A stretch of DNA of 64,000 nt from Psammoneis japonica (taxonomy: Eukaryota). Shown piece by piece: positions 19,497-64,000 of this stretch. The stretch's first letter is position 1, and each line of letters opens with the position of its first letter. The notes under the pieces are model-generated. The model saw nothing but the letters and a program-made list of their open reading frames with translations, ran no database searches and had not been told where the DNA came from. The position numbers and the translations under genes were made by a program. The stretch lies in NCBI GenBank assembly GCA_008632985.1, contig QPGO01000100.1, positions 1-64,000 of the forward strand, written 5' to 3'.

Positions 19497-21394
19497 ATGG
19501 GAAAAACAATGACGGCGTCAAATTGTGTTGCTGCTCTAAAGGCAGCAGTACTTGTATTTCTTTGTCAACCACGGAAATTGGTTTTGGGTGATGATAAAGA
19601 CAGAGCTCATAAAAAGACTCCGACTTGCACTGATCATAAGGAATGCGAAAACCGCGACGATGAATGTAGTCTCTGGTTTGCTCCTTCCACAATTCCCGGT
19701 GCTGGGATGGGCATGTTTGCGGGCACAAATTTTAAGCGCAAGCAGGATATGATGGATCAAGGTGATATTGTTATTCCGATTGTGGATATTACATACCATC
19801 AGGAACACCGCTTAGACTACTTTTTGTGGGATGAATACACTTGGAGCGCAGAAACACTCTTTATGGAAAACGAAGGCCTCGATATCAACAGCGCATCACC
19901 GGGTTTTGGATCAGCCGCAAATAGTGTACTGGACCTTGTCAATGTAGAAGAACATTACCCCACTCAGATTAGAGGCTCTGTAGGTCTGCATCGATCCAAA
20001 GACCCGGGCGCAGGTGCGTTCACATACTATCACAACCGACGATCGACTGCCAAAAAGAACATTGAAGCCGGGCAAGAGTTGTTTGTTTCTTATGGGAGGG
20101 ATTGGTTTGAGACTCGTGAACGTCATTTAGGCGCTGTGCCCCTTACAGGAGACTATGCCTGGGCCAATGTTGTGGTTCAAAAGTTCAAGCAGCTAGAGCA
20201 GAAACTAAACAACACCGCAATGCCCCGTCATGTCTTGGATGCTCTGTGGGATCAGTTTCTACTCAACAAACCAACCAATCAATCTCGTACACTAAATGCG
20301 CTACCCAGTGATCCCGAGGAATTGTTGAGAGTCAAGGAAGTAGGCGTCATGAAGTATAGAGGGAAAAAGCTTCGGTTTCGTTGGACTTCTTGAGAGCCAA
20401 TGGGACATGTGCTTCAAACCTGCGCGTCGGCGAATCCAAAATACCTCAGGCCGGTCGTGGTGCTTTTGCAGGACGACCCTTTAAGGAAGGCGACGTTGTG
20501 GCACCCGTGCCTCTTATTCATCTTGTTGAGGGTAGACAGCAGATGGAGATGTACAAGCTAGAAAAGCATAAGAGAAAGAATGACTACGTGGTCAAGAATC
20601 GTACCAAGCCGGTGGGACAGCAGTTACTGATGAATTACTGTTTCAGTCATCCAGAGTCGACGGTGTTTCTTTGTCCCTATGGATTGCAGACTGGCTTTGT
20701 CAATCACGATTTCAAGAATTACAACATCAAACTTCGCTGGGGTGACGAGCAGAAAACCAGTCATGACAACGCCTGGCTCAACAAGTCGTTACACGATTTG
20801 AAAATACACAACAGTGCCGTACTAGCATTTGAATTTGTTGCAACACGATCGATTAAGGAGGGAGAGGAAATTCTCCTGAACTACGGAGCCGAATGGGAAG
20901 AAGCGTGGAAAACTCATGTGAAGCACTGGAAGCCGCAAGAGAACGCTACCACATACAAGTCGTCTAGGGAATACAATGAAGATAAGGAGTCACCGCTCAA
21001 GACGACATTCGATGAGCTAGAAGAGAAATACCCTGATAATGTGAAATTGAAGTGCCATTCAATCTTTTTCGAACAGAAGGTGTGGAAACGGATAGTAGCT
21101 TCAGGACGGAGCCTGGACTCCTACATTTCTGAGGTCAAGGACGACGAGTACGTTGCTTGTGACGTTACGGCAAGATATCAGAATCGGGACAAGTCGCATT
21201 ACTTGTATACCGCCATTCACGAAGATAATGAAGAAGGGAAGGAAGCCATTCGAGTAGAAGATTTACCTCGAGAGGCATTCATATTCATTGACGAAGTCTT
21301 CACGACAGACTTACATTTGAAGAACGCGTTTCGGCACGAAGCTAGAATACCGGATGAGATGCTGCCAAATCACTGGAGAAACCTAAAGAGTTAA
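19497..21394 (+). CDS. Double SET-domain protein, copy 1
   Basis: SET1: APSTIPGAGMGMFAG...IEAGQELFVSYG. SET2: SKIPQAGRGAFA...FVNH...IKEGEEILLNYG. Hydrophobic N-terminus. Frameshift near 20370. Confidence 0.85.
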
Positions 21395-22536
21395 TAGGAA
21401 GTGTAAACGTGACTTATCTATACGTTCTTTCCTATGACACTTCCCGTCCTGTAGCTTGAACCCCTCAGTGTTGGAGCTGTTTCGTTTGCTAAGCCCTGCT
21501 GCTGATGAAATGCAGCCAGAGTCCTCATCTCTGAAATCCCTGTGCTGAGAACTGCCCTCAATTTCTCCAGTTTGACTCTGTCTTCTCTTGTTGGCTGATG
21601 CACACATTGCAGCCTGCTCAGATGCTTTTGCCACCCTGGTGGTGCAGAGACTGTAGCTGTTTTGTCATGAAGCCCCAGCCAACTGCACTTGAGGAAAATG
21701 ATGAAAAAGGTTGGCTGGTGTGAGCTGCACCCCTCACCTCCTGGTGGGTGTTGCCCTGCACACCAATCAGTGCAAAATTGTGTGAGAGCAGCTCAGAGGT
21801 GCCTTGACCACCAGCATGGCACCAAGCAGAACTGCATTGTCAGCTGCTCAAGACCTCTGCTGGGCTTGCAAAACTAACCTGGCTGGCCTGGCACTGCCCC
21901 AGAGGAGCACACAGTGCACCAAGCTTCTTTCTGCCACAGCACATGATTGGCACACAAAGAAAGGGACATGCCAGGTGGGACAAAAAGCTGGGCCAAGCCA
22001 TCACAGAAAAGACTGACTGCGCCATCTGCAAAGTGCATGTGGTGTTCTAAGGACCATGAGCAACAACCCCAGCCAAAGATGAAGTGCTTGGCCATGACAT
22101 CTTGAACCCATTTTTTTGACATTGCCACACAATTTTCCTCATGTCCCTGCACTGACATGATCATTGCTCGAGTGCTTGTCTCAACCATCACATTGTTTTT
22201 CATTTTGTTGACAATGTTCAGAGATCAAAGAAGCTGCAGAAAGCAATGTTGGACAAACTTTTGCACAGATGACAGGTCGTCATTTTGCTGCATTGCAGCC
22301 AAATCAAAAAGCCATTGTGCGGCATTGAGAAACCACCTGCTGCAGCAACAACGGGCTTTGGGGAGTCCCATTTTTTTTCATGGTGTCACAACAGGGGGCG
22401 GTGGTGTGTGGGGCTCACTTCCTGGGCTTTCAGCTTCCCCGCATGGCCCCAAACATGCTGGTGATGTGCACACACATTTTCTCACCATGCCACCACAGCA
22501 AAACACACAGCTGTGCCTTGCAGAGTTCTTGTGTGA

Positions 22537-23030
22537 GGAGGCCCAATTTCTTCCAAGACCACCTTGTTCTTGCAGCTTTGTGGTCCTTTGCAGCAGCGCC
22601 CAGGCCTTGGGCACAAAAAGCATGGGGTTTTTGCTGCTGACTTCAAACTCAATTTTGAGCGCACACTCTCTCTTTTGTGATGCAGGCACAGCTGAGAACA
22701 AGCAAGGAGCAGCAGTGCACACACCTTCTTCTTTTTAAAATTGAAAAGTCAACCAAAGCATTTTCCAGGTGGTTGCACCAGCACCTCTCCATCCCACAAT
22801 GGCTTTGCATGCCGACACAACTCCTCCACGAGGAAGTCACATCAGACTTGTTGAAAAACCAAAATGTCAAGTGTGATGTCAGCCTGTGGCATGTCATTTT
22901 GGTGTGATGAATGCACACACATCCACAACCTCAATTGCTCATTTCAAGAAGAAGTCACAACAGTTTCAACAGGTTTTGTTAAAACCAGCTGATGGCAGCA
23001 TTTGCAATGAGTTGACTCAAGGTGGCATTC
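22537..23030 (+). repeat. Diverged dispersed direct repeat, copy A (copy B ~25491-25945)
   Basis: Shared colinear blocks: gtttttgctgctgac.tcaaa.tcaattt, ggagcagc..cacaccttctt, tgaaaagtca, gacacaactcc, ttgttgaaaaa and aaaccagctgatg.cagca. Confidence 0.75.
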
Positions 23031-24342
23031 AGGAGCACCTGCAAGCTGCCAGTGCACAAAAACAACACACCACCAATGCTGTTGTCATGGCTGCATCTCA
23101 AGAGCTGAGCACACTGGCAGGCCAACACAGCCTGTCCACAAATGAACACAGAGCACATTGCAAAAGTCAGTCACTGCGTGGGATTTAAAAAGCTGGGCTG
23201 CTGCCCTTTGGCATGGAAACTCATGAAATGGGCCAAAAAGTCTCCTGCAAATTTGAGAGGAGTTGATGGATCCCTTGACTGTGACAAGGCTGTCTGGCGG
23301 CACTGACTCTTGTCTCTTTTTGGAGACAAATGAGTGCATTTTGATGGAACTCAAACTGCTTTTCAACATCAGCTGCCTGCCCTCAGCCCCTGCATGTGTT
23401 TCTGCACATGCTCTTGTGCTGATGTCACCCTTCTCAGATGGCATTTTGCTGAGTCTCTGACCATGACCACTCTGGCCATTTCTGCCAATGGCGCACTCTT
23501 GTTTCAGTGTGTTGAGCAGTGCTTCTGTGTGGAAAATGATGTTGATCTTTTTTGCAAATTTCCACAGACTCAGGAAATTTCCCACCTGGATTCCAGCACA
23601 AATTCTGTGTGCTTTAGAAACCATCACCAATGAATGCTTTGTCAAATCACCAAGCTGCTTGCACCCATGCCCATCTGTCCTCAATGCCCTTCTTTGTTTT
23701 CCTGTCAGCCTCAAATCAAGTCCTTTGCTCCATTTGGCAAAAGTGCCACCTCTGTTGTGGCACCAATGAATGTGAGTGTGAGTCCTTCTTTAGCACCAAT
23801 TGACAGTTTTTCATTTGTGCACACATTGGCATTTCTGTGCAAAAGATCTGCTGTGGTTTCCATGTGTGAAAAATGTTTTTCCAATGACCGACTCAGTCAC
23901 ATCATCATCAAGCACTCCCATTTCTTATCTCCCAGTTCTGGACAACCCTTCCCTTGTTGGTTGCCGGCAAATCATGTCATGCTCCCCCCTGCTCCACAAA
24001 GTGATCTTTCTGCCATTTTTGCATTTCTTGGAGGCATGAAAGTGGACTCCTTTTTGATGAGCGCCAGCTGTTGGTTTGGCAATCATGTTTTTGCTGCTTT
24101 TAAACAAAGCTCAGAAAGCAGCTGTCATTTGCCATTGTGGCACAGCAGCCACATCTCCAGCAAAAACCACAGTGCACTGGCATCTCTCTCAAACTTTCCT
24201 TTGCCTTTTGTTGCTGGTGGGGTGCTGACTGTCAATGAGTGCAACTTGAATTTGTCAGACACACCCTCCTCTTGCAGGTGGAACCACCACACAGAGAAGC
24301 TGCAGCAGAGCTGGCTGCAAAGTGGGCAAACCATGCCTCTCT

Positions 24343-24433
24343 GAGTTGGCCCTGCTCTTTGGCTTCATCTGCAACTTCCCACACTGGAGAGTTGGCCCTG
24401 CTCTTTGGCTTTGTCTGCAACTTTCCAGCTGGA
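24343..24433. repeat. Two-copy ~46-bp tandem duplication
   Basis: gagttggccctgctctttggctt(ca/tg)tctgcaactt at 24343 and 24389. Confidence 0.85.
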
Positions 24434-25234
24434 CACACAATCCACAACAAACAACAAACCAAAAAAGTGCAAAGTCTGTGCTGGCTCTCAATTGCAAATG
24501 GCTTGTGTTCATGTTTTTTTGTCATTGGAAATGTCCACCCTCATTTGTGGCTTTGTTTTGCACTGGGTCGTGCTGGCACTGCATGAGCAAGTCTGCAAGG
24601 GCTTTGGCTGGCCCACTCTCCACAGATTTGAGGGGGCTCCAGGCTCTCACAGATGGATTTTTCTGCTGCTGCCATGCTGCAGGGCCTGGAGCTGGGGGTT
24701 CCACATGTTCAAGTGTCTCTGCTGGCAGCTCTTTCAAGCATTTGTGGTCAGGTCATTTGAGCCGCATTGAAGCAGCAACAACCCCCTGCATTGAGGTGGT
24801 GTCAAGTCTCCATGCAGCAATGATGATGCCATTCTCATGCATTGTCAAGAGCTTTGTTCAGCGCTGCCTCATCACACACCTGTCATCAGAGGTTTTTCTG
24901 AAAAATGTTGCCCATGTGATGCAGCCAATTTGGTTGAGAACCAAGCAGATGCAAAGACACAGCTGAAAGACCAGTGCTTGGAGACAGACATGATTGTCTT
25001 CCAGTCTGATGACAGAGGAGACATCGCCTCTGTAAACAATGAAGATTTGGTGGCTTTTCAGATCCCCACTGGAACTCACAGACACTTGCAACCATTTCAT
25101 GTGGCATGCTGTGTCTTCTGCACTGGTCACAAAATTGATGAACGGTGGTGTTTCTCCATGACCGACTCCTCCTTGTCACATCAAGATGTCTGAAAACATT
25201 GAGTCTTGGCAACTCACAGTGTCTCATTTGCTCC

Positions 25235-25484
25235 CATGGATGCCATGACCCAAGTCACTGGAGACACCCCACAGAATGTTCTGCTCATTGAACGACATTA
25301 ATTTCAAGCCTGCTAAATGATCAGGCATGTGCAGTCAGGAGTCATTTCAAGACAAATCAAGATTAGAATTGAGCCCAATCCTGTTCCTTTTCTTTCATTT
25401 TTCTCCCTGCATGTCGTTGCATTTTACAGCAAACACATCACACCCAAAACCTCAATGACACGCTCAAGTCACCATGATGCGCCT
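25235..25484 (+). repeat. Mutated copy of the 5' upstream region and start codon of the gene at 31575 (twin ~31335-31585)
   Basis: Shared blocks acaccccacagaatg, ggagtcatttc, gacaaatcaagattagaatt.agcccaatcctgttcc and caccatgatgcgcct. Confidence 0.9.
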
Positions 25485-25490
25485 GGGCAT

Positions 25491-25945
25491 GGAGGCTTGA
25501 CTTTTTCAAAACCAGCACATGTTGTCCTGTTGTGGCTCCATCCATTGCCCCGAGCAGCAGGCAATGAGCAAAGAAAGTGTGAAGTTTTTGCTGCTGACCT
25601 CAAATTCAATTTCACCTGCATGCTCTCTCTCTTTCTGCAGCACCAAAAACAAAGAGGAGCAGCTGTTCACACCTTCTTGACAAATGAAAAGTCAGTTTTC
25701 TAGTCAGCTGTGCCAGCACTTCCATCCCTTGATGGCTTGACACACTGACACAACTCCAGGGAGTTGCCTCAAATTTGTTGAAAAATTAAAATGTGTGAAG
25801 CAAAGCTGTTGGCTTCAACAAAACTTTGTTGAAGCTGTGCAGTTTCAACAAAATTTGTTTGAACCAATGCACAGTTTCAACAGCTTCTTCTGAAACCAGC
25901 TGATGTCAGCACCTCCAATGAATTGCTTCAAAGTGGTGTGCAGTG
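25491..25945 (+). repeat. Diverged dispersed direct repeat, copy B (copy A ~22537-23030)
   Basis: Same colinear blocks as copy A. Confidence 0.75.
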
Positions 25946-27130
25946 CCCCTGCTGCTGTGAGCTGTGAGTGACCAAAGCATGCCATTGCCAATGCTGTTGC
26001 CATGGTGACATCTCAAGACATGATGTCACTGGTCAGCTGCCCAGAGATCTGGCTGCTCACAGGAGAGGATGTTTTTGTCTCATGTTGTTTGTTCCTCTCA
26101 AACACTTCTTCTGTTGCATTTTGCTTTGGCTTGATCACCCTTTCATCCAACCAGTCAACCCAGCTGAAACTGAGCATTTTTCTCCAGTGTGATGCATTTG
26201 CCAGTTCAGATGTCCGCACCATGTCTTGTTTTTCTGGGTTGGAGTTGGAGCACAAAAGCCGTGTTGTCATGCCCATCTGCATCGTTGTCACACCAAGGGA
26301 ATCCCGCCATCCCATTTTTTGGAAGATGACATCACCCAGCATTTGGGCAGTGGCTTGAAGGCAAATCTGCACAAAGGTGCACTCATTTGTTTTGACAATT
26401 CAAAATGCCCCCTTCCACCACCACCTGCCAAGGGCTGCAGCAACGCCAATGCAACGCACAGCACATTGTGCACTGACCTCTGATTGCTTGCCCACGCTTC
26501 AGGATTTGAAACAAAAGCCATTGGGTCAGGCCGAATCCTTTGCCAATCCTGTCTCAAGTGTGCTCATGACAAAGACACTCGACAGACCCTCCACCCAAGG
26601 AACTCTGGAAATGTGTGCTGCAAGTTGTCTCTTCACAATGATCATCATCAAAACAATCATCCCAGCAAGGTCACAAGAGACAACCTTGTCAACCCCAAAC
26701 CATGAAATCCATTGATTCTGAAGGCGCCTGTGTTCCATCCACATCAAGTGCAGCCAGTTTGGGTGTCATTTTGTTTGTGGCAATGGCTGCTGTGTTGTCA
26801 CGAGAGCCACATGTGCTTCATCTTCCCAAGGAAACAACTGCAAAGGTGTGACACCCTGGTTCATTGGAGATCATCAGAAGCTGCAATGCAGTGGTTGTTG
26901 CTGTTGTTGTCATTCATTTTGCCATTGAATTTCACTCATGTCATTCTTTTAAATTTGAAAGTCAAACTTGAATGTGTTTTGACAATGCAAGGCATTTGCA
27001 CATTTCACATGAGGAATTTTGCCATCTGTTTGCATTGATGATTTGTTCCAAAGCAACATGAATTTAAAAATGTTTTGTGGTCAATTCTTTGTGCTGTGAC
27101 AATCAAACCTCTTTGCTTTTGATGATTTAG

Positions 27131-27191
27131 ATTTCAACTTGGTTTTTGCTTTTTCCACACCATTTCAACTTGGTTTTTGCCTTTTCCACCC
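27131..27191. repeat. Two-copy 31-bp tandem duplication
   Basis: atttcaacttggtttttgc.ttttccac at 27131 and 27162. Confidence 0.85.
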
Positions 27192-27448
27192 CGTTTGTGC
27201 ATCACCACATGTGTGCTGGTGTCATGTCTGTGCCCCAGTCATCTCCACATGTGCGCTCCTTTCTCTTTGCATCTCACTTTTTCCCAAATTCTGTGCATGT
27301 TTCTCTGCTGCATTTTCAGCACTTTTTCTGCATGCGCATCTGCACATTTCACAGTGCAGTGCACCTTCTCCCCAAAATCCATTTGACCAGTTCATGCGCT
27401 GTTGCGATTCACACACTTTCTGCATGAACCATCAACTGATCACCAGCC

Positions 27449-28063
27449 ATGGTGGCCAGCAACTTCACCCCATCAGCAGACGAGGTTAACCCCAATCCCT
27501 TGTTCATCTTTGCTGATGATGTCAATTTTGCTGACACAGAATGTTTTGCACCAGTGGTTTTGGAATGGAGCTGTTTGGGCCCAAGCTCAAGAACACAACC
27601 GCCACATGTGCATCCAAAGCAGTTTGTGGAGAGAACAAATTGGCCACCCTCTCCAGATTTTCTTGCACTTCCCTTCCTTTGCCACAAGCCTGAGCTTCAT
27701 CATGTTCCATGTGTCACTGAAGTCATCCACACCAACAACAATGTTGGGAAAGCTCTCAGATGTCCCGACATTTGGCCCCACATCATGACTCATGGTTGGT
27801 TGATGAAGAAATCCCACCAGAACAAAGGTGAGCAGGTTCCTTGGCATCAAAATTTGGAGGATGCTCTTTGTTTCTGCACCCTGCCAGGAGAGACAGAACA
27901 TGATGAAGAGGAGCACCATTGTGACTTTCGCTGCAACACAAAGGTGATGGCAGGGTTCACACGCCAGATCATTGCTGGTGAGGACCTCAACAATCCTGTC
28001 TCAGGCAAGCCTTGTTTCCATTTTTTATGTTGCAAAAGTCTCCAAGATCTGATTGATGACTGA
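27449..28063 (+). pseudogene. Hypermutated coding-like relic of unknown identity
   Basis: 204-codon frame with protein-like composition (LFIFADDVNFADTECFAPVVLEW...). It lies where the Gypsy RNase H would be expected, but on the opposite strand. Confidence 0.3.
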
Positions 28064-28199
28064 GCACATGACCTGCACGGTGCATGCTTTGTTGTCAAAA
28101 TGGTCATGCGTTGTGTCCTCTGCAAACCCCAAGACAGGAGCTGTCGGTTCATGCAGATCTTTTGTGAAGTCACCGCCCAAAAGGAGTGGCACATTTTTG

Positions 28200-31036
28200 T
28201 CAATGGCAGGTCATGGCACCCAAGAACGAATGCAATTGTGCAGCAGCATTCTGTGGAGGTTGCATGTGAAGGATGGCTTCAACCTTTTTCTTCCATGGCT
28301 TGACTCCATTTGGTGCAAGCCAATGCCCTAAAAATCTGTTTCCTGTGCACACCATTTGCATTTCAATGGATTCACTTTTGAGCCATTCTCCGTGAGCCAA
28401 TGTGCAAATGCAATGCTTTGTTGAGACAAGAGAGACAGGAATCAAACTCAGCATCAAAGGCACCAACATCATCAACAAAAGTTTTGACATCCAAGCCATG
28501 TAAAATCTTTTCAATGACGCATTGCACAATGTCTGGCCAGAGCCAGTTTTTTGGCCCCGCAGCCACACGACAGCATTGAAATTTGCTGCAGGGAGCTGCA
28601 ATTGTTGCTGGCTCCTTGCTTTTTCTCTCCAACTCCAGATCACAGCAGAACACAGTGAGGTCAATCTTGGTAAAGAGCTTTTGCATCCTGCTCTTTGTTG
28701 TGGCACATCTTGAATCATTGGGAGAGGACAGACTTTGCACTTGAGCATCTCACTAAATTCGCAAAAATTGAACACCCCCACTGCACTCAGTTGTCTTTCT
28801 TTGGCATGACAAAAGCACCTGCTGCCTGTTCCGCAGGTCCACATGGTCACAGTCATGCTCCAAGTTCCACCAAATGCTGCAACTCTTTCTTGAATGCTTC
28901 TTCATCAACTTGAGGAACAGCAAATGGTTTTGAGCAACAAGGCACAGCATTTTCATCCACTGTCAGGTGCACCTTTTCATGAGGACTGTGGCCTGGTGTT
29001 CCATCAAACAAGGTTGAGTGTTTCTCCAATGCCACCACCAGTGGCTCATTCTTTTGTAATCCAAATTTTTGACAACTTCCAAAGGATCCGTGGCTTCACA
29101 CTTGGCATCCAAAATGTGGCTGTCACATCCATCGTTGCACCCATGATCTGATTTGTCCTTGCAATCATCATCAAATTCATCCATTTGATCCAGAGCAATG
29201 CACCAATTGCAGGACTTGGACCAATGACGAGGTTCTTTCATTGGAATCACATGGTCTGACCAACACAGAGTCCTGGTGTTGCAGTTCAAATGGAGTCCAA
29301 TCTTGTCTAAGAAATCTTGACCCAAAACAATGTCGCGCACACATGGAGCATTGAAAATGTGAGCCACACAGCCATCCACTCCTCTCATCTTGTCAAACTC
29401 TGGTGACACAACATCACTTAGAGTCGCCCATTGACCTGACTGAAAAGGACCTGGCATTGTTTGAAAGGCTCAAACTCCATGCTCATCTGTTGATGGAGCT
29501 GCTCCATGGGGTAAAACTTGAGACAAAATCACAGTGTGAGAGCCACTGGAGTCAAGTGAAACATGCGTTGCACAATTTGACTCATGACACTGAATTAATC
29601 TGGCAACAAGTGGAGCAGACAGCACCAATGCGGTTTGCGAAACTTGCGAGTTCATTTTGGGGAGAGGAGTGTCACATTCAAACACGTCTTGATCAAACAC
29701 GTCCCTCTCATCATTCATGTGATTTTTTGCAGTGTCTTCAAATTCAGTGGGTGACAATTAATTGGGATTTCCAAAACAATCAAAAGCAAACATTTCAGGT
29801 CAAACACATTTGTTTTCACAATCCACAAACAATGCTTCACACATGGGCAATTGGGGGTGGAGCATTCAGCTCCTTCTTCTCAGAGCTGCTGAGGAAACTG
29901 CCCATCTGGCTGAAGCCTTGCCACTCCTCTTTGACATGGAGGGCCTTGTTGGATCATGTCAAAATGGTGTGCATCACCACAAGGAGCTTTTCTCGAGCCT
30001 GGTTGTCACTCACATCTGCTTGTGCAGCACAGCCAATTGTCTGTCCTTGACCACCACAGTGGTTGTCATTGTCATTGCAACAGTGCTGGCCACCACCACC
30101 TTGGTTGCCATTGTCATTGTTGTTGTTGTTGTTGCAATTGCTGCAACGGGTGCTGCAACCTCCTTGGCTCTGGTTTTTGCAACCACCGCCGCCGCAGCAT
30201 CCACTGCCACCTCAACCACCACCACAGCCTCCTTGATGGTGACCTCCACCTTGACCTCCTCCACAATGGCCTCCACCACAACTGCCACAGTTTTGAGGCC
30301 CACAACAGTTGGGATTGTTTGGATTTTCATGACACTGGGCCCAAGCATGCCTTCCCCTTGATGCCATGGGGCCAGACATGGATCGTCAGACTTGGGTTGG
30401 CTCTTTCCACCATGCTTGTCATTGTCACCCTTTTTGTCACTGGAGTTTCCTCCATTGTCCTCACTGCACTTGCATTGCTTTCCTGTTGTCTTGATCATTG
30501 GCAAACACCTTCTCGTTGCTCGCGCAGGTCTTGGTGTCCACCACGGAATCTTTGACAAGATTTTTGCCCACACAAATGCAAGGCTGCTGCCATGCCAGTG
30601 GAAAAGCACAAAAGATTGTGCTCTTTTGCTCCTCCTCAGCAAGTTCAGGAACAGCGCCAGGCAAATGGTCATCAAAAGAACAAAAAAGAGTTTCCGTGCG
30701 GTCAACATGATGTGTGCCTCCGATTCCACAGACTGAGGTTTCTTGCAAGTGTGGGCAAACAAATCTTCATGGCATCCCAAGCTGTTGGCTTCACACAGCA
30801 CAAATGACAGGCCGCCATTGTTTGATTGAACTGTGCTGCTGCTGTTCGTTGGTTCTGAGGGACCCCAGCAGCAACATTTTGCCACTTCGACTCTGCCATG
30901 CCCTGCAGGCAATCCTCAAAAGAGCACTCCTGAAGAAGCTCAGAATCAACAAATTCAGTCTTGTGTTCAATGCAAGCCTTCCATCTCCAAGGCTTCTTGA
31001 TGCATGTCTGGGAACTTCCAACGGTCCCTTGAACAT
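28200..31036 (-). mobile_element. Degenerate Ty3/Gypsy LTR-retrotransposon gag-protease-RT fragment, truncated at both ends
   Basis: Gag: FEDCLQGMAESKWQN, KKPQSV, LPG..PEL, FPLAWQQ, a knuckle-like DDPC..WH...HAWAQC..NPNNPN and a Gly-rich tail. Protease: SLDSSGSHT and [37 protein letters not shown] and [22 protein letters not shown]. There is no integrase between protease and RT, which is the Gypsy order. No RNase H, integrase or LTR was recognised. Confidence 0.9.
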
Positions 31037-31574
31037 CTTAATGCGTTAGTTAACATGCATGTGTCAGAGAGCTAGAGAGCTAGCTGGTAGACAGAGCAAG
31101 CAGAGCGACGCGCGCGAGGGCACACTCGGACATATAGCACATGTCCCTATTTCATTCAGTGGTGTTTCGCCATGATCCCCCCTTGTCCACGTCAAGATGT
31201 ACATAATGTCTACTAGAGTAGAGTGTCTCACACGTAGGTCATTGTACTGAAAATAAACACGTCATCTAAGTAAGTCTCGGTACTGTAACTTTGTCCTCTA
31301 TTGTTCATACTGTACATAGTGTCTACTGTCAGTCTATGGTACATACTGCGACCCACGTGGTTGGAACACCCCACAGAATGCTCTGCTGGTTGAACGAATT
31401 TTTAATTAAGCCTACTCAATGATTAGTACTGAGTGTGCAAATGAGGAGTCATTTCCCGACAAATCAAGATTAGAATTAAGCCCAATCCTGTTCCCTTCCC
31501 CCGTTCCCATATCGTGTTTATTTCAACAGTAAATACATCATACTGTACCACCTCGATGACATAATCAAGACACC

Positions 31575-34500
31575 ATGATGCGCCTATCAATCATCATTGC
31601 GTCCTTCACCTCTGTAGTTGGTGCAAATAATGAGGGCATGGCTATATTTGGCAACGGAAGTAGCGATCCTCCAGGATACGCTCATTGGGACGGGGATGGA
31701 TTTTCTTCTCAGGGAAGTATGAGAGACTCTACTGACGGAAGGTGGCGAATCATTCAAGGCGCCTACGCGCCCACAAGAGATGAGGCTATTGTGATTGGAG
31801 TTTCAGCCGATGAAGTGGTCACGGCCCAAATGTATTCGGAAGGACGGTGGAATGATCTTCCATTTTCGCCATTGGATGACAAGGCAGAAAACTCCTGGTC
31901 GTTTGGCTTTGATGTTCGATACGAGTCTCAGAGCGGAAATGCGCTAGTTGTGTGGCACGAGGGAAGCAGGGACACGATCCTGTACTCAACGTGGGATGGA
32001 GCGAAATGGAGTCCGCCCCAACGAATTGACACGCCTGTGCGTGGCGGTGAGCACAGCGAAGTCAACCTGGAGGCGAGCCCGGTAACTAACGAGATGGTAC
32101 TTATTGCTGGAGTCATATCAGAAAGTGATTACTGTATCGTTTGGGACGGAACAAGTTGGAGTAATGGTATCGACTTGGAAAACAAGGGCACTGGCAATTT
32201 GAGAAACATAGGTGTGGCTTATGAGCAGAACAGAGGCCGAGCAATGGTCATTTATGGCGACGGGCAAGCTTCGCTGCCGTACCAAATCTGGGATGGTCAT
32301 AAATGGCGGAAAGGGTACGCTTCAGCACCTAGTGACATTCACAAAAGAGTCCTACACGTCACAATAGGGGCAGATCCATCTAGCAATCGCATTGCGGTGG
32401 GGGTCACGTCAGATTCAGACCATGCCTTCTGGGTCGGCGTTTGGGATGGAAACAACGGTTTTGGATCAGTACAACGAGTCGCATCTGGATCATCCGCAGA
32501 AGATTACCACGGTATTGCCGTCGCATTTGAGGGGATCTCTGGACATGCGATTGCCACTTATGCACAGAACAGTGATGCGGTCCGCTACCGAACATGGTCA
32601 TCAACGTCAGGTTGGTCAGACGAGAATGACGGTCCAGATCTCGGGGCCGAACCAAACTCAATGATGCTCTATTCGGCTCATGGGAGCAATGAGATAATGT
32701 TGGCAGTCCAGAACAATAATCAAGAAGCCTCTTTTTGTTCTTGGAGTGCCGGGGGCTGGGGTAAACTAAGTAAGATGAGCCTTGACACTGGGGAACGCCA
32801 CAACAAGAACCAGCCCTACCTCTTCATGTGGAAGCCGATTGCCGGTACAATAGATCCGACCCCATTACCAACAAGTCAGCCAACTCCTCCGCCAACACCA
32901 TTTCCAAGCCCCCCTCCAACACCTCCACCCACTCAAATGGGGCCTACGCCATCGCCAACGTACTCTCCCACAGAAAAGCCAACGGTTTGTGTCGACGATC
33001 CAGAAGGTTGGTATGATCCAGACGGCGAGATCTATAATTGTCCTTGGTATGGTTTAGATGACAATTGCAATCAATACGGAGATCTATTTGAAAACTTTGG
33101 AGTCACTGCGAATGAGGCTTGTTGCGCAGTAAGTGCAATATCGGCTTTATTCTCTCTCGTATCCTAGCGTGGATTAGAATTGGCTAACCGTTTCTATTTC
33201 GTATTCGTGTTAGTGCGACGGCGGAAAACTTCTGTCGATTGATGAGATTACCCTATCCCCAACACCTCAACCAACAGATCGACCTACTATAACCCCGACA
33301 AAAGATCCAACTAACGGACCCACAGATTACCCAACGCCATTCCCTACCTCATCTCCTTCATTGAAGCCGACTCTTATGCCTACGGAACTCCCGACGGAAC
33401 CTCCAACTCTAGAGCCTTGGACTCCGCAGCCAACTCCAAAGCCGACGGGCCCACCAACGCCACCTCCTTCGACGAATCCGACTCGTTTACCTACGCCATC
33501 ACCGACAGGTAGGCCCACCCGGCCACCGACGCAAGATCCGACGGTCAGGCCTACTGCTACCGTTACTTCATCGCCAACTGACATGCCGACGAGAAGTTTC
33601 ACGGCAGAACCTACACGCAAACCAACAGGTTCGCCAACAAGAGGCCCCGCTTCGGTGCTAATCTCAGATTACAGACTGCCACCAACTGATTTGAGCAACG
33701 AAACGGACCCGATAAATTCACTAAGTAAATCGATGGGCACTGGGAAACCCTGTTCGACCAACCAGCAGTGCAAGTCATCCACTTGTCGAAACGGTGTGTG
33801 TATGGCTTCGTCGGCGTGCTACCCAATCAAGCACAAATTTGCTAAAGCATTTGACGAGCACAGTGTCAATATCGTCTTTGTTGCATCGGCATTTAACTCG
33901 GTCGGTCATAAAGAATGGAAATCCAAGGCCAACTCGACCTATGAATTCATGCAAATTTACAACATGTTTGCCAAAGAGATCGACGAACTAAACATATTCT
34001 TGGTGGATCCTCCTTCACTGGATAGATCTTTTTGCCAACTCGGTTGTGCAGGCATCGATCGTCTGTTGTGCTGTGACACTACCCGAGCTCACGCATTGGC
34101 AAGCAAATGCTTCCCTGTCGGCTCGAATCTCCAAACTCTTGTCGTTCACAACTCCGGTCAGTACGGTGGAGCCGGTTACCCTTCGGCAAACATTGCCACC
34201 GTGTCAACCCATCCAGCAGCCCCTCTAGTATTGGTACATGAGCTTGGTCACTCGTTATTTGAACTGGCTGACGAGTATTCGTACGGAGGTGGCACAGACA
34301 TTGAACCGAATTGTGCTGCTAGTGAAGCTTGCTCCAAATGGTCAGATCTCATGGGGCCCGAAAACACACCAGAAGGCTACGATCCGGTTCAATGCATTCC
34401 TGGATGTAGAAACAACAACTACTTTGTCGGAGCACAAACATTCATGAACGTTTTGTCGTATCCGGTTGGATCTGTCAATGAAAGGTTCACCTGTTGCACT

Positions 34501-35537: not shown

Positions 35538-37328
35538 ATGACGGGGCCCCAGCGGCTTGTCGTTCTTACCGCAGTAGTCCTTGCATGTTGTTGCCATCCA
35601 AGCATTGAACAGACACATGATGATGAATGTAGTCTCTGGTTTGCACCTTCCACAATTCCTGGAGCTGGAATGGGCGTGTTTGCGGGCACAAATTTTTCAT
35701 GGAAGCAAGAGATTATGGAGAAAGGCGATGTCGTTATTCCAATAGTAGACATTTTCGCCCATCAGGAAGGTCGAATGGACCATTTCTTGCTCAACGAGTA
35801 CAGTTGGCACGCTATACCCCTCCTAATGGAAAACGAAGGCTTGGAAGTCATTGGCATGTCACCGGGCCTCGGTTCGGCGCTCAATTGTATTCTCGATTTA
35901 GTCAATGTGAAGGAATACCCACCAACTCAAATAAACGGTTCTGTTGGTCTGCATCGATCCAGAGATCCAGGGGCAGGGGCTTTTTCGTATTACCACAACC
36001 GACGCTCGATTGCCACCACGGACATCACTGCAGGACAAGAATTGTTTGTGGACTATGGAGTTGCATGGTTTGAATCTCGCGAGCAAGAGTTAGGTGCCCT
36101 GCCTCTGGCGAAAAACTATGAACTGGCAGGCTCTACCAGAATCGTCCAGAATTTCCGTCGTCTTCTTGACACGCTATGGGAATACTTAGTGCCTAGCACA
36201 TCAACCAACCAATCGAGAAGAGTGAATGCAATTTCAAACGATCCCGAAGAACTGTCGCGTGTGAAGGAAGCGAGCACCAGGAAGTATAGAAGGGAACAAG
36301 CAACAGTGTCTATGGACTACTTGAGAGAAAATGGCATGTGCGTTTCAAATCTACTTGTCGGCGAATCGAGAATACCTCAAGCAGGTCGTGGTGCTTTTGC
36401 AGGCCGAGCCTTTCAAGAGGGAGACGTGGTGGCGCCGATGCCTCTGATTCACCTTGTGGACGGCAGACTACAGATGGAGATGTACCAGGTCGAAAAGCAC
36501 AAAACGGAGAATTTCTTTGCCTTGAGGAATCGAACGAATCTGGTAGGACACCAGCTGATGATGAACTACTGTTTTGGTCATCCAGAATCCACCGTGTTTC
36601 TTTGTCCCTATGGATTGCGAACAAGCTTTGTCAATCACGATTTCAACAATTACAATGTCAAGATTCGTTGGGGCGATGAACAGAGAACCAGTCACAATTT
36701 TGCATGGCTTAAACAGTCACTGAAGAAATTGCGAATGCAAAAGAGTGCCGTATTAGCGTTTGAGTTGGTTGCAACACGACCAATCAAAGAGGGAGAAGAA
36801 GTTCTTTTGAATTATGGTGCTGAATGGGAAGAAGCGTGGAGGACGCATGTGCAAAATTGGCAAGCACAAGAGAACTCTACCAACTACAAGTCGTCTCGAG
36901 AGTACAACGAGGATAAGAAGTCGCCGCTCAAAACGGCGTTTGACGAGCTAGAAGATAAATATCCCGAGAATGTGAAATTGAAATGCCATTCCATCTTTCT
37001 CGACAGCAAGGTGTGGAAACGACTGGTGGCTCGAGGGCAGGACTTGGATTCCTACATTGCCAAATCGGAGGAGAACAAGTACGTTTCATGTGACATTACA
37101 GCAAGGTACCAGAGTGAGGACAAGTCTCATTACTTGTACACGGCAGTTTCTCAGGAAGATGAAGCGAAAGATCCCATTCGCATGGCCGATTTACCCCGAG
37201 AAGCGTTTGTCTTTATTGATGAGGTCTTCACGACCGACCTTTATCTTAAGAACGCATTTCGTCACGAGGCAATCATACCGGATGAGATGATACCGAATCA
37301 CTGGCGAAACCTCAAGCGAAAAGGCTAA
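35538..37328 (+). CDS. Double SET-domain protein, copy 2
   Basis: Intact 596-aa ORF, colinear paralogue of 19497-21394, with a signal-peptide-like N-terminus LVVLTAVVLACCC. Confidence 0.9.
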   Translation: MTGPQRLVVLTAVVLACCCHPSIEQTHDDECSLWFAPSTIPGAGMGVFAGTNFSWKQEIMEKGDVVIPIVDIFAHQEGRMDHFLLNEYSWHAIPLLMENEGLEVIGMSPGLGSALNCILDLVNVKEYPPTQINGSVGLHRSRDPGAGAFSYYHNRRSIATTDITAGQELFVDYGVAWFESREQELGALPLAKNYELAGSTRIVQNFRRLLDTLWEYLVPSTSTNQSRRVNAISNDPEELSRVKEASTRKYRREQATVSMDYLRENGMCVSNLLVGESRIPQAGRGAFAGRAFQEGDVVAPMPLIHLVDGRLQMEMYQVEKHKTENFFALRNRTNLVGHQLMMNYCFGHPESTVFLCPYGLRTSFVNHDFNNYNVKIRWGDEQRTSHNFAWLKQSLKKLRMQKSAVLAFELVATRPIKEGEEVLLNYGAEWEEAWRTHVQNWQAQENSTNYKSSREYNEDKKSPLKTAFDELEDKYPENVKLKCHSIFLDSKVWKRLVARGQDLDSYIAKSEENKYVSCDITARYQSEDKSHYLYTAVSQEDEAKDPIRMADLPREAFVFIDEVFTTDLYLKNAFRHEAIIPDEMIPNHWRNLKRKG

Positions 37329-61047: not shown

Positions 61048-62109
61048 GACTACCAAGTGAAAGCTAGCTAGTTATGCAGTAGAAGTGTTGGGGGGTTAGA
61101 TTAAAAATGTTTACTTAATTGTACTACAGACAGTGGTGACTGATTCCTGAGCTATAACGCAGGATCGCTGAGCCTACGTTTACCTTGTTGGTGCTGACTT
61201 CAACAAATGTAGCTGACAAGTCACAATTATTGCGTTCCAGCGATGTTGCTCTACCTCTGGTAGGCCCTCTAGCTAGTAGGAGCATGTACTTATACTCTCT
61301 ACTCTTTCTAGAAGTAGCTACTAAGCTCTCTCTACTAGCCACTCTAGCTAGAGTACCGTGGAGCTAAGCAGGGATGAGTTGGATGCTCCGAATTCTAGAA
61401 TGATGACGGTTGATTGGCAGTTATTGGCTTTCGCGCGACCCGTGGGATACTCTCTACTTGCTACTAGCTAGCTACTCTAGCCGCTAAGAGAGCGAACAGC
61501 CGTCGTTCCGGATTCAGGGGCGTAGATTTTTGTTTTTGGAGATGACAAAGTGTCGACCCGCATTGGCCTTCTTTGAGCTGTTCTTCATTGTTGACATTAA
61601 TTGAAGACACAGACATTGCTTTTAGGAGTGGGCCTTTGGTTTGGCAAGAAACGGAGTTGTTGTTGTGCAGAAATCAAAGCAAACACGGGTCTTTTTGCTG
61701 TGGCGTTGCCTTTTCTGAGCAGCAAAACCCATGCTCTGATGTTTGTTCATTTGTGTCACCTCCTCTGATGATGACCATTGCTGTCATCTGTGTGCAGTGT
61801 GTTTGATCTGTGGTGAGAAATGTCACACTGTCACGTTGACTGGGAAATGCCGCAAAATGGGAAATTTTCATTGCCCACATTTTGATGCATGCATTCATTC
61901 AATGCACCTCCTTTGTTGCTTCCCTTTGATGGTGTCTCTTTGTTGTAGACACAAAAACATCCTCTGTCTTTGATGTGCTGTCTGTGTGATTTGTGGTGAG
62001 AAATGTCAGTCACACTCGTGTGTGGTCTCGTGCCAGCATTTTGTGGCTAAGACCGACCCATGCTGCTTTGATGTTTGTTCATTCATTTCACCTCTTTGCT
62101 CACACTTCT

Positions 62110-62208
62110 TTGATCTAATCTCTTCTTCACTTGTGAAAAAATTGCATTGCTTTGCGCTTGATCCAATCTCTTCTTCACTTGTGAATGGATTGCATTGCCT
62201 TGCACTTG
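62110..62208. repeat. Two-copy 48-bp tandem duplication
   Basis: ttgatc(t/c)aatctcttcttcacttgtgaa...attgcattgc.ttgc(g/a)c at 62110 and 62158. Confidence 0.85.
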
Positions 62209-62399
62209 CGTTTTGGTGGGGTCATCCTCATCACATTGGCACAGGACATCCCATCAAGGAGCTGCCCTCTGCCATTGCATCTGACAATGACAACCTGTGC
62301 TGTGCCAGTGGCATGCAACAGCCAAAAAACATGGTGGTGGATGACCCAATGTGATGGCATCTCATCACACGTTGGCTTTGTGGTGCCAGGAACATTGGC

Positions 62400-63500
62400 T
62401 CTGTGTCCAGAGTGTGCAAATCCTGAGAGAAAATGTTGTTGTCTGATGATGACAGAGGAGGAGACAACTTGTGAAAGCAGTTCTGTGCCAACACCCATTT
62501 GGAGGGCACAGTCCAAAGCTTTCTTTGTGTGGTGCTGAGCTGGGACTTTTGTTGTTCGACCCAATCACTTGACATGAATGTGTCCTCCACTGAAGAATTG
62601 CCAAGCACTCTGCTTGGCCCTGCCCTGGGGTCAAGCAGCATCTTTGCTGTTGGTGAACTCAGCCACAAACAACCCACCGACAATGGCATCAAGAGCAGCC
62701 AACACGTTCTTGCTTTGTGAGCACATGATTTAGTTCAGCACAAGCCAGAGCTGTCACATGTGCCTGATGCCATTGCTGGGGTGGTGCTCACAGTGGAAAA
62801 TCCACGCGCATCAGCAGCAGCCCTTCCAAGCAGATTTGACAAAGCGTTCAAGGAAGTGCTGGAAATCAAATGCATCACATGCAACATCCTGTGCAATGCC
62901 TCGTTTGACAACACTCCAAAGGATGATGACAGAGATGCTCTTTTTCTCAAGGTGAATCTTTTCAGGCAGGACAACATGAAGTTGGTGTGTGGTCTGGAAG
63001 AGGATTCTGTCAGTTGCTTGCATGAGGAGACAAACAAGCCATTGTTCATGTTTGAGAACACCACAGCAGTGGACAATGCTCAGGCTGGAGGAAATTCTTT
63101 CACAGTGCAGGTCAAGGACAGTGCAACTGGGTTTCAAAGCTGGTCTTTTGTGTGAAACTGGGTTTCAAAGCTGGGCCTTTGTCCACGTGGGCATCCTGGA
63201 AGAGGAGGAATTCCCTTGGATCTCAGAGCTGCCAGGCTGCACAGATGAGAAGGACACTCACTGCATCCTGTCCAAAATGCCTGCCTGCAAGTTTTGGATT
63301 GGTCACTTTTCACCACATGTGCATGGTGTGCCAAACAGACCATTTGAAAGTGAAAATGACATGGCTGTCACATTGGGAGGCTTGTGTTGATGGTGAGCTC
63401 TGCTTCGGAGCATTGGCCACTCCCAGTGCTTGGGGACACCATGGCTTGTCAAACTCCTTGACAGTTGGCAGATGGCTTCTGCAGCAGATTCACACATTTC
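62400..63500 (+). pseudogene. Hypermutated coding-like relic of unknown identity
   Basis: Protein-like stretches such as PDAIAGVVLTVENPRASAAALPSRFDKAFKEVLEI...GLEEDSV..LFMFENT, broken by TGA stops and frameshifts. Confidence 0.35.
63125..63183. repeat. Two-copy 31-bp tandem duplication
   Basis: aactgggtttcaaagctgg at 63125 and 63156. Confidence 0.85.
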
Positions 63501-64000
63501 AGTCCCTTGTTTGCACTGCATCTTTGTGCTGCATCAGAAAGCATCAACCTGGCAACAATTTGTGAATGTGCACTTCGCAAAGAGTGCTTTGAGATGGGCA
63601 AATCCAAAATTCCAATCCCCATGATGGACATTTTTGTCCTTGAAGCTAGAATGTGTTTGAATGCAATGTGATGCTGCAGGTGATTTACATGTGAGACATG
63701 AAGAAGCTTTGGGTCATTTCATGCTTTTTCATTGCGCCAGCAGTCGTGAAAGTTCGAACAAACCTTGTCACAGTTAAGCACCTGCATTTTCTTGCAAAAT
63801 GTGAAATGAAGGTTGTCGAAAACTGCATCTTCACAGGGTGCACCTGCCAGAAAGGAAAATGTTTTTGCCATTTCAGGACCAAGAGGCATTTAACTGCACG
63901 GCAGCTTTCAAATGTTGGAGCGCATCAGACAAGAACTTTTGTGCTGAATTTTGCATTCTGTCACAATGAACTACAAACAAAATTGTCAGTGCCACTGTGA

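Follow-up and report, generated by a model that had tools for sequence, protein, structure and literature searches.

This analysis concerns the first 64,000 nucleotides of contig QPGO01000100.1 of the diatom Psammoneis japonica (the window below), and in particular a 9,548-bp block within it that we call island 1. In this block most CG and nearly all TA dinucleotide steps have been rewritten as TG or CA by transitions, and the resulting composition is not native to the DNA. The origin of the pattern is mutational, the changes fall in defined contexts and on both strands, and they are sharply confined to the island, which appears to be the dead remains of transposable elements (TEs). A second block with the same erasure begins near the end of the window. 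The two islands are as follows:

21,491-31,038, no strand assigned: island 1, apparent compound TE relic with CG and TA steps changed to TG or CA (from composition, change points and contigs of the public run X1)
61,560-64,000, no strand assigned: island 2, the same CG and TA erasure, continuing past the window end at 64,000 (from composition)

The first-pass annotation, made from the letters of the sequence, had described a sharp-edged block of about 9.6 kb that was poor in CG and TA and had an excess of TG and CA. Recomputation confirmed that description, and its hand counts were exact (0 CG and 1 TA in 21,661-21,960, and 15 CG and 12 TA in 20,401-20,700). Island 1 holds 32 TA where 366.6 would be expected at the flank rate (binomial P 7e-116), and 90 CG where 537.5 would be expected (binomial P 3e-131). 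As observed/expected (O/E) ratios, the island has CG 0.17, TA 0.05, TG 1.83, CA 1.85 and AA 1.24, and the other 52 kb of the window, outside both islands, has CG 0.98, TA 0.56, TG 1.18, CA 1.16 and AA 1.14, so AA is not depleted. Island 2, which starts at ~61,560, has CG O/E 0.21 and TA O/E 0.05. GC content is nearly constant, at 47.3% in the island and 47.8% in the rest.

The transition from flank to island is abrupt. In 1-kb bins between 22 and 31 kb, CG O/E falls from ~1.0 to 0.07-0.26 and TA O/E from ~0.55 to 0.00-0.09, and in the nine full bins of 22,001-31,000, which span that whole TA range, TG and CA each reach 1.67-2.01. The ranges of island and flank do not meet: the maxima among 35 island windows of 1 kb are TA 0.094 and CG 0.28, and the minima among 200 flank windows are TA 0.34 and CG 0.72. 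Maximum-likelihood change points for island 1 lie at 21,490/21,497 on the left and 31,019/31,022 on the right, the first TA beyond the right edge is at 31,039, and the edges are sharp to ~10-40 bp. TA and CG density is normal up to 21,490, beyond the end of the neighboring host gene, and the host open reading frames (ORFs) that lie 100 bp and 540 bp from the edges of the island have normal TA and CG.

The total of pyrimidine-purine (YR) steps is the same inside and outside: islands 1 and 2 have 24.05% and 24.78%, and the other 52 kb has 24.10%. Within that total, CG and TA together fall from 9.47% in the rest to 1.28% in island 1 and 1.53% in island 2, while TG and CA together rise from 14.6% to 22.8% and 23.2%. 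The CG and TA lost equal the TG and CA gained, and therefore the steps were converted one for one. A constant YR share, a steady GC content and common AA are what transitions at CG and TA predict, and not what repeat-induced point mutation (RIP) predicts.

The ancestral letters can be approached through several features inside and beside the island:

28,200-29,640, minus strand: broken Ty3/gypsy pol relic, with aspartic protease at ~29,640-29,090 and reverse transcriptase (RT) at ~29,070-28,200, frameshifts and in-frame stops (phmmer, tblastn)
22,519-23,124, plus strand: direct repeat copy 1, ~600 bp, pair of 25,473-26,039 (self-comparison)
25,473-26,039, plus strand: direct repeat copy 2, pair of 22,519-23,124 (self-comparison)
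25,215-25,485, plus strand: mutated copy of the region directly upstream of the ORF at 31,575-33,167, start codon included (homology to 31,315-31,586)
31,315-31,586, plus strand: unmutated counterpart of 25,215-25,485, ~280 bp outside island 1, with normal TA and CG (homology)

To identify the pol relic, the minus strand was X-read translated over 27,701-28,972 and the product was compared by phmmer with 1.84 billion representatives. The search returned 150 relatives at E<=1e-3 (best E 3e-13), and the long ones are Ty3/gypsy polyproteins with RVP, RVT_1, RT_RNaseH, Integrase_H2C2 and rve domains. By tblastn, the protease and then the RT follow each other on the minus strand over several frames, in the order found in Ty3/gypsy elements.

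Comparison of the relic with these relatives used the 224 alignment columns that have eight or more relatives and the same residue in 60% of them or more. The relic retains none of 14 conserved Tyr columns (Fisher P 2e-7) and 2 of 10 conserved Arg columns (Fisher P 0.003), against 138 of the 200 columns with other residues. In place of Tyr there are seven Cys (TGY), one His (CAT), three Phe and one each of Arg, Ser and Gln; in place of Arg there are two Gln (CAA, CAG), two Cys (TGC), one His (CAT), one stop (TGA), one Lys and one Ser. Tyr became Cys, by A>G on the sense strand, and His, by A>G on the antisense strand, both in the relic and in database relatives, and therefore both DNA strands were hit. 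The stops in the relic trace to CpG changes, for example CGA to TGA at 28,789.

A single-base change could be inferred in 57 of the columns; 19 need at least two changes, 8 are ambiguous and 140 are unchanged. The 57 comprise 19 A>G (16 after T, 3 after A), 10 T>C (8 before A), 11 G>A (9 after C), 4 C>T (3 before G) and 13 transversions, with A>T and A>C together accounting for 4. A>G and T>C changes fall at TpA in 24 of 29 cases, where 18.5% of A sites follow T in the relatives' DNA (P 1e-13), and G>A and C>T changes fall at CpG in 12 of 15 cases, where 22.1% would be expected (P 3e-6). The column method cannot register third-position T>C and C>T, which are synonymous, and the apparent strand bias (A>G above T>C, G>A above C>T) was therefore set aside as an effect of ascertainment. 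The earlier claims that both CG and TA had gone to TG/CA by transitions, and that A>G was concentrated at TpA, are borne out by the constant YR share, the lost Tyr and Arg, the ordinary relatives described below and the undepleted AA. Tabulating changes at TA against AA had been put forward as the way to tell a deaminase from Pol eta, and the outcome, 16 to 3, favors a deaminase.

The duplicated segments point the same way. At the 18 TA of the outside copy at 31,315-31,586, the island copy has 5 TG, 7 CA, 1 TA and 5 other dinucleotides; other dinucleotides in this 270-bp paralog pair are kept at 140 of 233 places. Treating all YR steps as one symbol raises the identity of the pair from 74.6% (248 nt) to 80.6% (283 nt), and that of the direct repeats from 65.0% (529 nt) to 70.7% (621 nt).

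Sister copies or alleles in X1 differ from the window by transitions at 176 of 249 places. The breakdown covers the 34 in-block differences listed out of 252, of which 19 are YR-type and the other 15 are 9 transversions and 6 other transitions. Among these listed differences, the copies have 8 CG and 2 TA where the window has TG/CA and 3 TG/CA where the window keeps CG, and 3 pairs are swaps between TG and CA. The swaps mean that each copy took its own hits, starting from an ancestor with TA or CG. From the ratio of 8:2, conversion of TA seems to have gone further than that of CG in all copies.

The gypsy family itself is not natively free of TA, as 78 related metagenome loci have TA O/E of 0.43-1.00 and CG O/E of 0.27-1.40.

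The TA steps that survive are not a random sample. In the two islands together, 13 of the 41 survivors lie in TTAA, against 88 of 1,993 TA in the rest (odds ratio 10, P 3e-8); the next contexts are CTAA/TTAG with 14 and GTAA/TTAC with 7. No TA survives in ATAA, ATAT, ATAG, ATAC, GTAT, CTAT or GTAC, contexts that hold 959 sites in the rest. Read per strand, this pattern suggests that the A in T-A-N is most mutable when N is T or C, then G, and least when N is A (TAY > TAG > TAA). TTAA would then predominate because a TA lasts only if it is a poor target on both strands. CG survival varies less by context, with ratios of 0.04-0.47 and GCGC highest. Residual TA is also clustered in space: 7 of the 32 in island 1 lie within 25,000-25,800, the part with the host-like paralog fragment, and this part may be younger or less targeted.

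The same column test was applied to the 150 database relatives. Among the 90 with at least four conserved-Tyr columns, 70 keep more than 70% of their Tyr, 14 are intermediate and 6 keep 25% or less. These six are:

P0259, apparently TpA only: Tyr 0/19 kept, 18 now Cys or His; Arg 17/18 kept
P0184, apparently TpA only: Tyr 0/5 kept; Arg 5/5 kept
P0164, apparently TpA only: Tyr 0/6 kept; Arg 5/5 kept
P0189, apparently dual: Tyr 1/7 kept; Arg 1/5 kept
P0197, apparently dual: Tyr 2/10 kept; Arg 4/7 kept
P0234, apparently dual: Tyr 1/5 kept; Arg 2/4 kept

P0259, P0184 and P0164, together with P0176, a shorter Tyr-free relative, are records from NCBI, JGI, ENA and Logan; the DNA that encodes P0259 was not found in viral_contigs. 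These Tyr-poor public gypsy RTs look like footprints of the same process in other hosts. Three of them have lost Tyr and kept Arg, so TpA loss without CpG loss exists, as it does in Bigelowiella natans, an alga discussed below. The TpA and CpG changes, which we call the two arms, thus look separable, and the CG arm looks like a second process. Of the "dual hypermutation" that the first-pass annotation had named, the conversion of both steps stands, and its origin in one process is doubtful, given the TpA-only RTs and the sister copies that hold CG more often than TA.

By the genetic code, TA to TG/CA can remove TAA and TAG and can never make a stop. The TpA arm therefore yields no new stops, and its victims, when it acts alone, would stay open and be predicted as proteins. 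Within 21,400-31,100 there are 31 ORFs of at least 100 aa and 46 stop-to-stop frames of at least 90 aa on both strands, an abundance due to the near absence of TAA and TAG. For annotation this is a trap: where TpA erasure removes stops, dead TEs give long spurious ORFs and Tyr-free "proteins" in databases.

The sequence of the island is also seen in contigs of a public run. Contigs of X1 carry 0.97 of the sampled words of the 64-kb stretch, and the listed pieces cover 20,000-27,649, 27,995-29,230 and 29,652-33,000, both edges of island 1 included, at a depth of 58-71, equal to that of the flanks, with 0-7 letters differing per piece. These contigs support the sequence of the block across both edges, though the run is possibly the source sample. 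No RNA run was found among the listed public runs that contain window sequence. The window has a single N, at position 1,378.

Island 1 appears to be a compound relic made of at least one gypsy remnant, a direct-repeat pair and low-copy debris. Summed X1 depth reaches 146-1,212 over 27.4-30 kb and 23.0-24.3 kb, against ~60 in the flanks, and these parts are therefore multicopy; at 85% likeness, the remainder of island 1 comes close to a single copy. The direct repeats, the sole repeat pair found, lie beside the pol relic and do not bracket it, and are possibly the long terminal repeats (LTRs) of a small non-autonomous element. No LTR pair bracketing the pol relic, with the target-site duplication that would mark a Ty3/gypsy insertion, was found in raw or YR-collapsed comparison. 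A tblastn search for RNase H and integrase in island 1, up to E<=5, gave chance-level matches only, and Pfam gave nothing above threshold in 40 island ORFs or, for both islands, in any of the six X-read frames. Mutation has carried the relic beyond the reach of Pfam, and phmmer alone found it. A word-indexed protein search with the relic, at the "shorter" and "near" length settings, returned no match at E<=1e-3 and no same-family protein from this species.

The genes around the island are eukaryotic and intron-poor. They include an mTOR ORF of 2,191 aa and genes with MFS, SET, Rieske, anoctamin and serine carboxypeptidase domains. For the carboxypeptidase, the top relatives that carry a name are all raphid pennate diatoms, at 46-82% identity (Fistulifera, Mayamaea, Seminavis, Amphora, Cylindrotheca and Nitzschia), which makes the host a diatom and sets it apart from Bigelowiella. 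With the gypsy protease-RT relic, this diatom-like flanking gene agrees with the earlier view of the block as degenerate TE DNA in a diatom. The nearest gene on the left is:

20,381-21,394, plus strand: unaffected host ORF with a SET domain, ending ~100 bp before the left edge (Pfam SET 1.4e-08)

A paralogous SET ORF lies at 35,538-37,328, with ~76% nucleotide identity to the first over the 3' parts. That a gene of histone-methyltransferase type stands beside a silenced-looking island is probably a coincidence. The X1 contig over this gene (20,117-20,515) has 6 differences in 400 bp, against 1 in the next 2.9 kb, a cluster that points to variation between alleles or strains centered on the gene.

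Island 2 has internal repeats of 31-35 nt at 61,732-62,094, and shares no homology with island 1 beyond one 21-nt match (E 0.039). A GCTAG-rich 21-nt word stands just outside the right edge of island 1, at 31,071-31,090, and recurs in inverted form at 61,461-61,481, immediately to the left of island 2. The match (19/21, E 0.039) is too weak to call the word a shared island terminus.

We consider it probable that a dead TE island was rewritten after it had entered the genome by two context-specific transition processes confined to the island. In the first, TpA would become TpG or CpA through A>G on either strand, near saturation, leaving ~9% of the flank TA density. This arm would prefer TAY, act more slowly at TAG and nearly spare TAA, with survivors mostly in TTAA. 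In the second, CpG would become TpG or CpA, leaving ~17%, and the simplest source would be deamination of 5-methylcytosine in a CpG-methylated TE; we infer that methylation drives this arm. The TpA arm would disable proteins by turning every Tyr into Cys or His and by altering Ile, Leu and Val codons, and the CpG arm would add changes of Arg to stop, Cys, His and Gln.

For the TpA arm, our tentative candidate is a TadA/ADAT2-like adenine deaminase that acts on DNA and is guided to TE chromatin, a proposal on which we are nearly evenly divided, leaning slightly to doubt. The natural substrate of TadA/ADAT2-type enzymes, tRNA A34, as far as is known always follows U33, and bacterial TadA reads U-A-C-G. 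These substrates fit the preference for TA and for TAC.

Several points weigh against this explanation. What it says of methylation, chromatin, small RNA, the current rate and the enzyme is read from sequence. Position 35 of ADAT2/3 substrates is G, C or A, and the 3' order seen here (T~C>G>A) does not fit these substrates well. The context ranking is firmer than its numbers, as the baseline is host-gene tetranucleotide usage, a stand-in for the ancestral TE composition. The column inference covers amino-acid-changing sites in conserved columns and takes the neighboring base from the relic itself, and for the ancestral states it draws on one 270-bp paralog and on relatives that are distant (25-55% identity) rather than on a same-species family consensus. 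None of the 1,143 1-kb windows in the 78 metagenome loci has TA O/E below 0.3, that is, no partly mutated relative appeared among loci that were fetched by intact-motif patterns, a choice which favors unmutated copies, so that the result speaks to the native composition of the family rather than to the frequency of mutated ones. The X1 run, possibly the source of the assembly and of unrecorded platform, gives support rather than independent replication. The B. natans precedent is an unreviewed preprint. Finally, the sharp edges would fit editing before integration equally well.

On that last alternative, retrotransposon RNA or cDNA was hyper-edited, by an ADAR-like enzyme or a cDNA deaminase, and the mutated copy was then inserted. 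It would account for edges that are sharp to within tens of base pairs next to host sequence that is untouched 100-500 bp away, and the RT-bearing part does belong to a multicopy family. We nevertheless think it unlikely. Edits to sense RNA or a single cDNA strand would be one-sided, and here both DNA strands are hit; the multicopy and low-copy parts of the mosaic are equally erased; the island copy of the host gene's upstream region and start codon is mutated too; and in B. natans the signature accrues in place in integrated DNA over generations, as far as the preprint text describes it. Because the whole mosaic is equally erased, host-like fragment included, on both strands, and because of that in-place accrual, we infer that the mutations in island 1 arose in place after integration.

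The TpA arm could have a source other than adenine deamination, such as Pol eta-like synthesis at WA or a modification at TpA (of the 5-hydroxymethyluracil (5hmU)/base J type, or N6-methyladenine) that is misread or misrepaired. The WA motif includes TA, the enzyme of this arm is known only as a candidate, and to our knowledge dinoflagellate 5hmU favors TpA. Transversions are frequent among the errors that Pol eta makes at WA, and AA is hit too. In the island AA is not depleted, and the 19 A>G changes compare with 4 of A>T and A>C together. A>G is far commoner after T (16) than after A (3), which argues against polymerase error of the WA type. We regard this group of sources as improbable.

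Deamination in two arms could also be the work of one enzyme that attacks both A and C at the self-complementary YR steps TpA and CpG. The arms have a common domain, common edges and a common end product, P0189, P0197 and P0234 show both losses, and the preprint cites, at second hand, ADAT2 enzymes for which deamination of both A and C in DNA is claimed. One enzyme would not easily explain why P0164, P0184 and P0259 have no conserved Tyr left and yet keep Arg at 5/5, 5/5 and 17/18, nor why, among the differences listed, the sister copies show a fourfold excess of retained CG (8) over retained TA (2). Context dependence is strong for TA and weak for CG, and the reported B. natans spectrum is A>G or T>C in 230 of 231 cases. 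A single enzyme seems quite improbable to us, and two processes remain our preferred account.

A native composition, with a family intrinsically poor in CpG and TpA or avoiding a nuclease site, is already contradicted and has next to no chance: RNA viruses are reported to show joint CpG and UpA suppression with TG/CA excess, and here the pol gene is broken, its conserved catalytic-core Tyr and Arg are replaced exactly along the TA>TG/CA and CG>TG/CA paths, and the TA O/E of 0.05 is far under the minimum of 0.43 among 78 relatives that all have normal TA and CG. An artefact of assembly, polishing or base calling at modified bases is just as remote: long-read assemblies can contain systematic miscalls where bases are modified and the X1 platform is unrecorded, but the X1 k-mer contigs contain 0.97 of the sampled words and run across both edges at a depth like that of the flanks, the Tyr to Cys/His signature recurs in predicted proteins from four separate sources (NCBI, JGI, ENA and Logan), and the changes are coherent at the protein level.

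Mutation in place by two processes also allows a broader proposal, which we hold to be possible but rather doubtful. A genome defence based on DNA adenine editing would be common to the SAR clade (Stramenopila, Alveolata, Rhizaria), at least to diatoms and chlorarachniophytes. A deaminase derived from TadA/ADAT2 and guided to transposon or viral chromatin would deaminate the A of 5'-TAY-3' in either strand until no TpA remains. It would kill proteins by tyrosine erasure without making stops, independently of CpG methylation and alongside it, and the Tyr-free RTs in NCBI, JGI, ENA and Logan would be its footprints in many uncultured hosts. The 3' rule, with TAY most mutable and TTAA nearly immune, gives a concrete specificity for testing candidate deaminases, and transformable diatoms such as Phaeodactylum would make the question approachable if model diatoms show the same islands.

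Known systems resemble island 1 in part. RIP of ascomycete fungi is also a domain-limited transition hypermutation that ruins repeats and mobile DNA and leaves a sharp-edged dinucleotide footprint. RIP is described as C>T mainly at CpA, which creates TpA (RIPCAL). In island 1, by contrast, TpA is erased (O/E 0.05), CpA is raised to O/E 1.85, GC is held at 47.3% against 47.8%, and the 270-bp homolog that lies 280 bp beyond the island has been left unchanged. Fungal RIP was rejected, as its defining TpA gain is reversed and there is no drop in GC.

Decay of 5-methylcytosine accounts for changes of CpG to TpG or CpA and for a CpG O/E of ~0.2 inside TEs only. Island 1 has CG O/E 0.17 against 0.98, and 6 of the 10 conserved Arg have become Cys, Gln, His or stop. 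CpG-context methylation has been reported for a retrotransposon of P. tricornutum (PMC2806351). This decay covers the CG arm only and cannot remove TpA.

APOBEC3 and ADAR of animals likewise inactivate retroelements through clusters of deaminase-made transitions, and ADARs are reported to favor a 5' U (10.64898/2026.01.13.699255). They act on one cDNA strand or on RNA, with one-sided G>A or A>G, far from a 95% removal of a dinucleotide. In island 1, both strands and also DNA that is not from retroelements are affected.

The closest system is that of the chlorarachniophyte B. natans. A 2026 bioRxiv preprint (Mettrop et al., 10.64898/2026.01.13.699255) reports that viral DNA integrated in the genome of this alga is hypermutated by A>G and T>C changes at TpA only. 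According to its text, mutation-accumulation lines had 231 of 302 nuclear single-nucleotide mutations in one region of a nucleocytoplasmic large DNA virus (NCLDV) and one virophage region; A>G and T>C made up 230 of those 231, each of them at TpA. The rate in the viral regions was ~6e-7 against 3.5e-10 elsewhere, ~1000x background, and the process was active only in some lines. The B. natans genome is reported to hold 124 clusters poor in TpA and rich in CpA+TpG, with RT and DDE domains overrepresented among its TpA-poor coding sequences, and the authors propose an ADAT2-like DNA adenine deaminase (10.64898/2026.01.13.699255). The first-pass annotation had known of no published description of such a process; that claim does not hold, as the preprint already measures TpA hypermutation.

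Island 1 shares with the reported B. natans regions the change of TpA to TpG/CpA on both strands, the loss of TpA with gain of CpA+TpG, a target in foreign or mobile DNA, regional limits, spared host genes and the link of TpA-poor coding sequences to RT. Its AT>GC transitions fall mainly at TpA and are confined to mobile DNA, and 1-kb clusters in the island lie within the cut-offs given in the preprint (Rho_TpA <=0.43, Rho_CpA+TpG >=1.52). There are also differences. The host here is a diatom (Stramenopila) and B. natans belongs to Rhizaria; the target here is an island of LTR-retrotransposon relics and there a giant-virus insert; TA O/E is 0.05 here and 0.45 in the reported B. natans NCLDV region. 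CpG is lost here, and the preprint text, as far as it was accessible, has no mention of CpG or of diatoms; nor does that accessible text mention flanking context, trinucleotides or TTAA, to set beside the 3'-neighbor rule. In B. natans the rate was measured directly, whereas here the footprint is known from sequence alone. The literature searched, in which subscription journals were thinly covered, held no report of TpA erasure in diatoms.

As a kind, then, TpA hypermutation is already known from the B. natans preprint. What is new here is the diatom host, the saturated retrotransposon target, the co-occurring CpG arm, the 3'-neighbor rule and the environmental relatives that carry footprints. 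The one earlier report of invading DNA subject to targeted A-to-G hypermutation came from a single alga; the diatom island, together with the environmental footprints, suggests that a mutational or genome-defence process of this kind is widespread among eukaryotes and not peculiar to one species.

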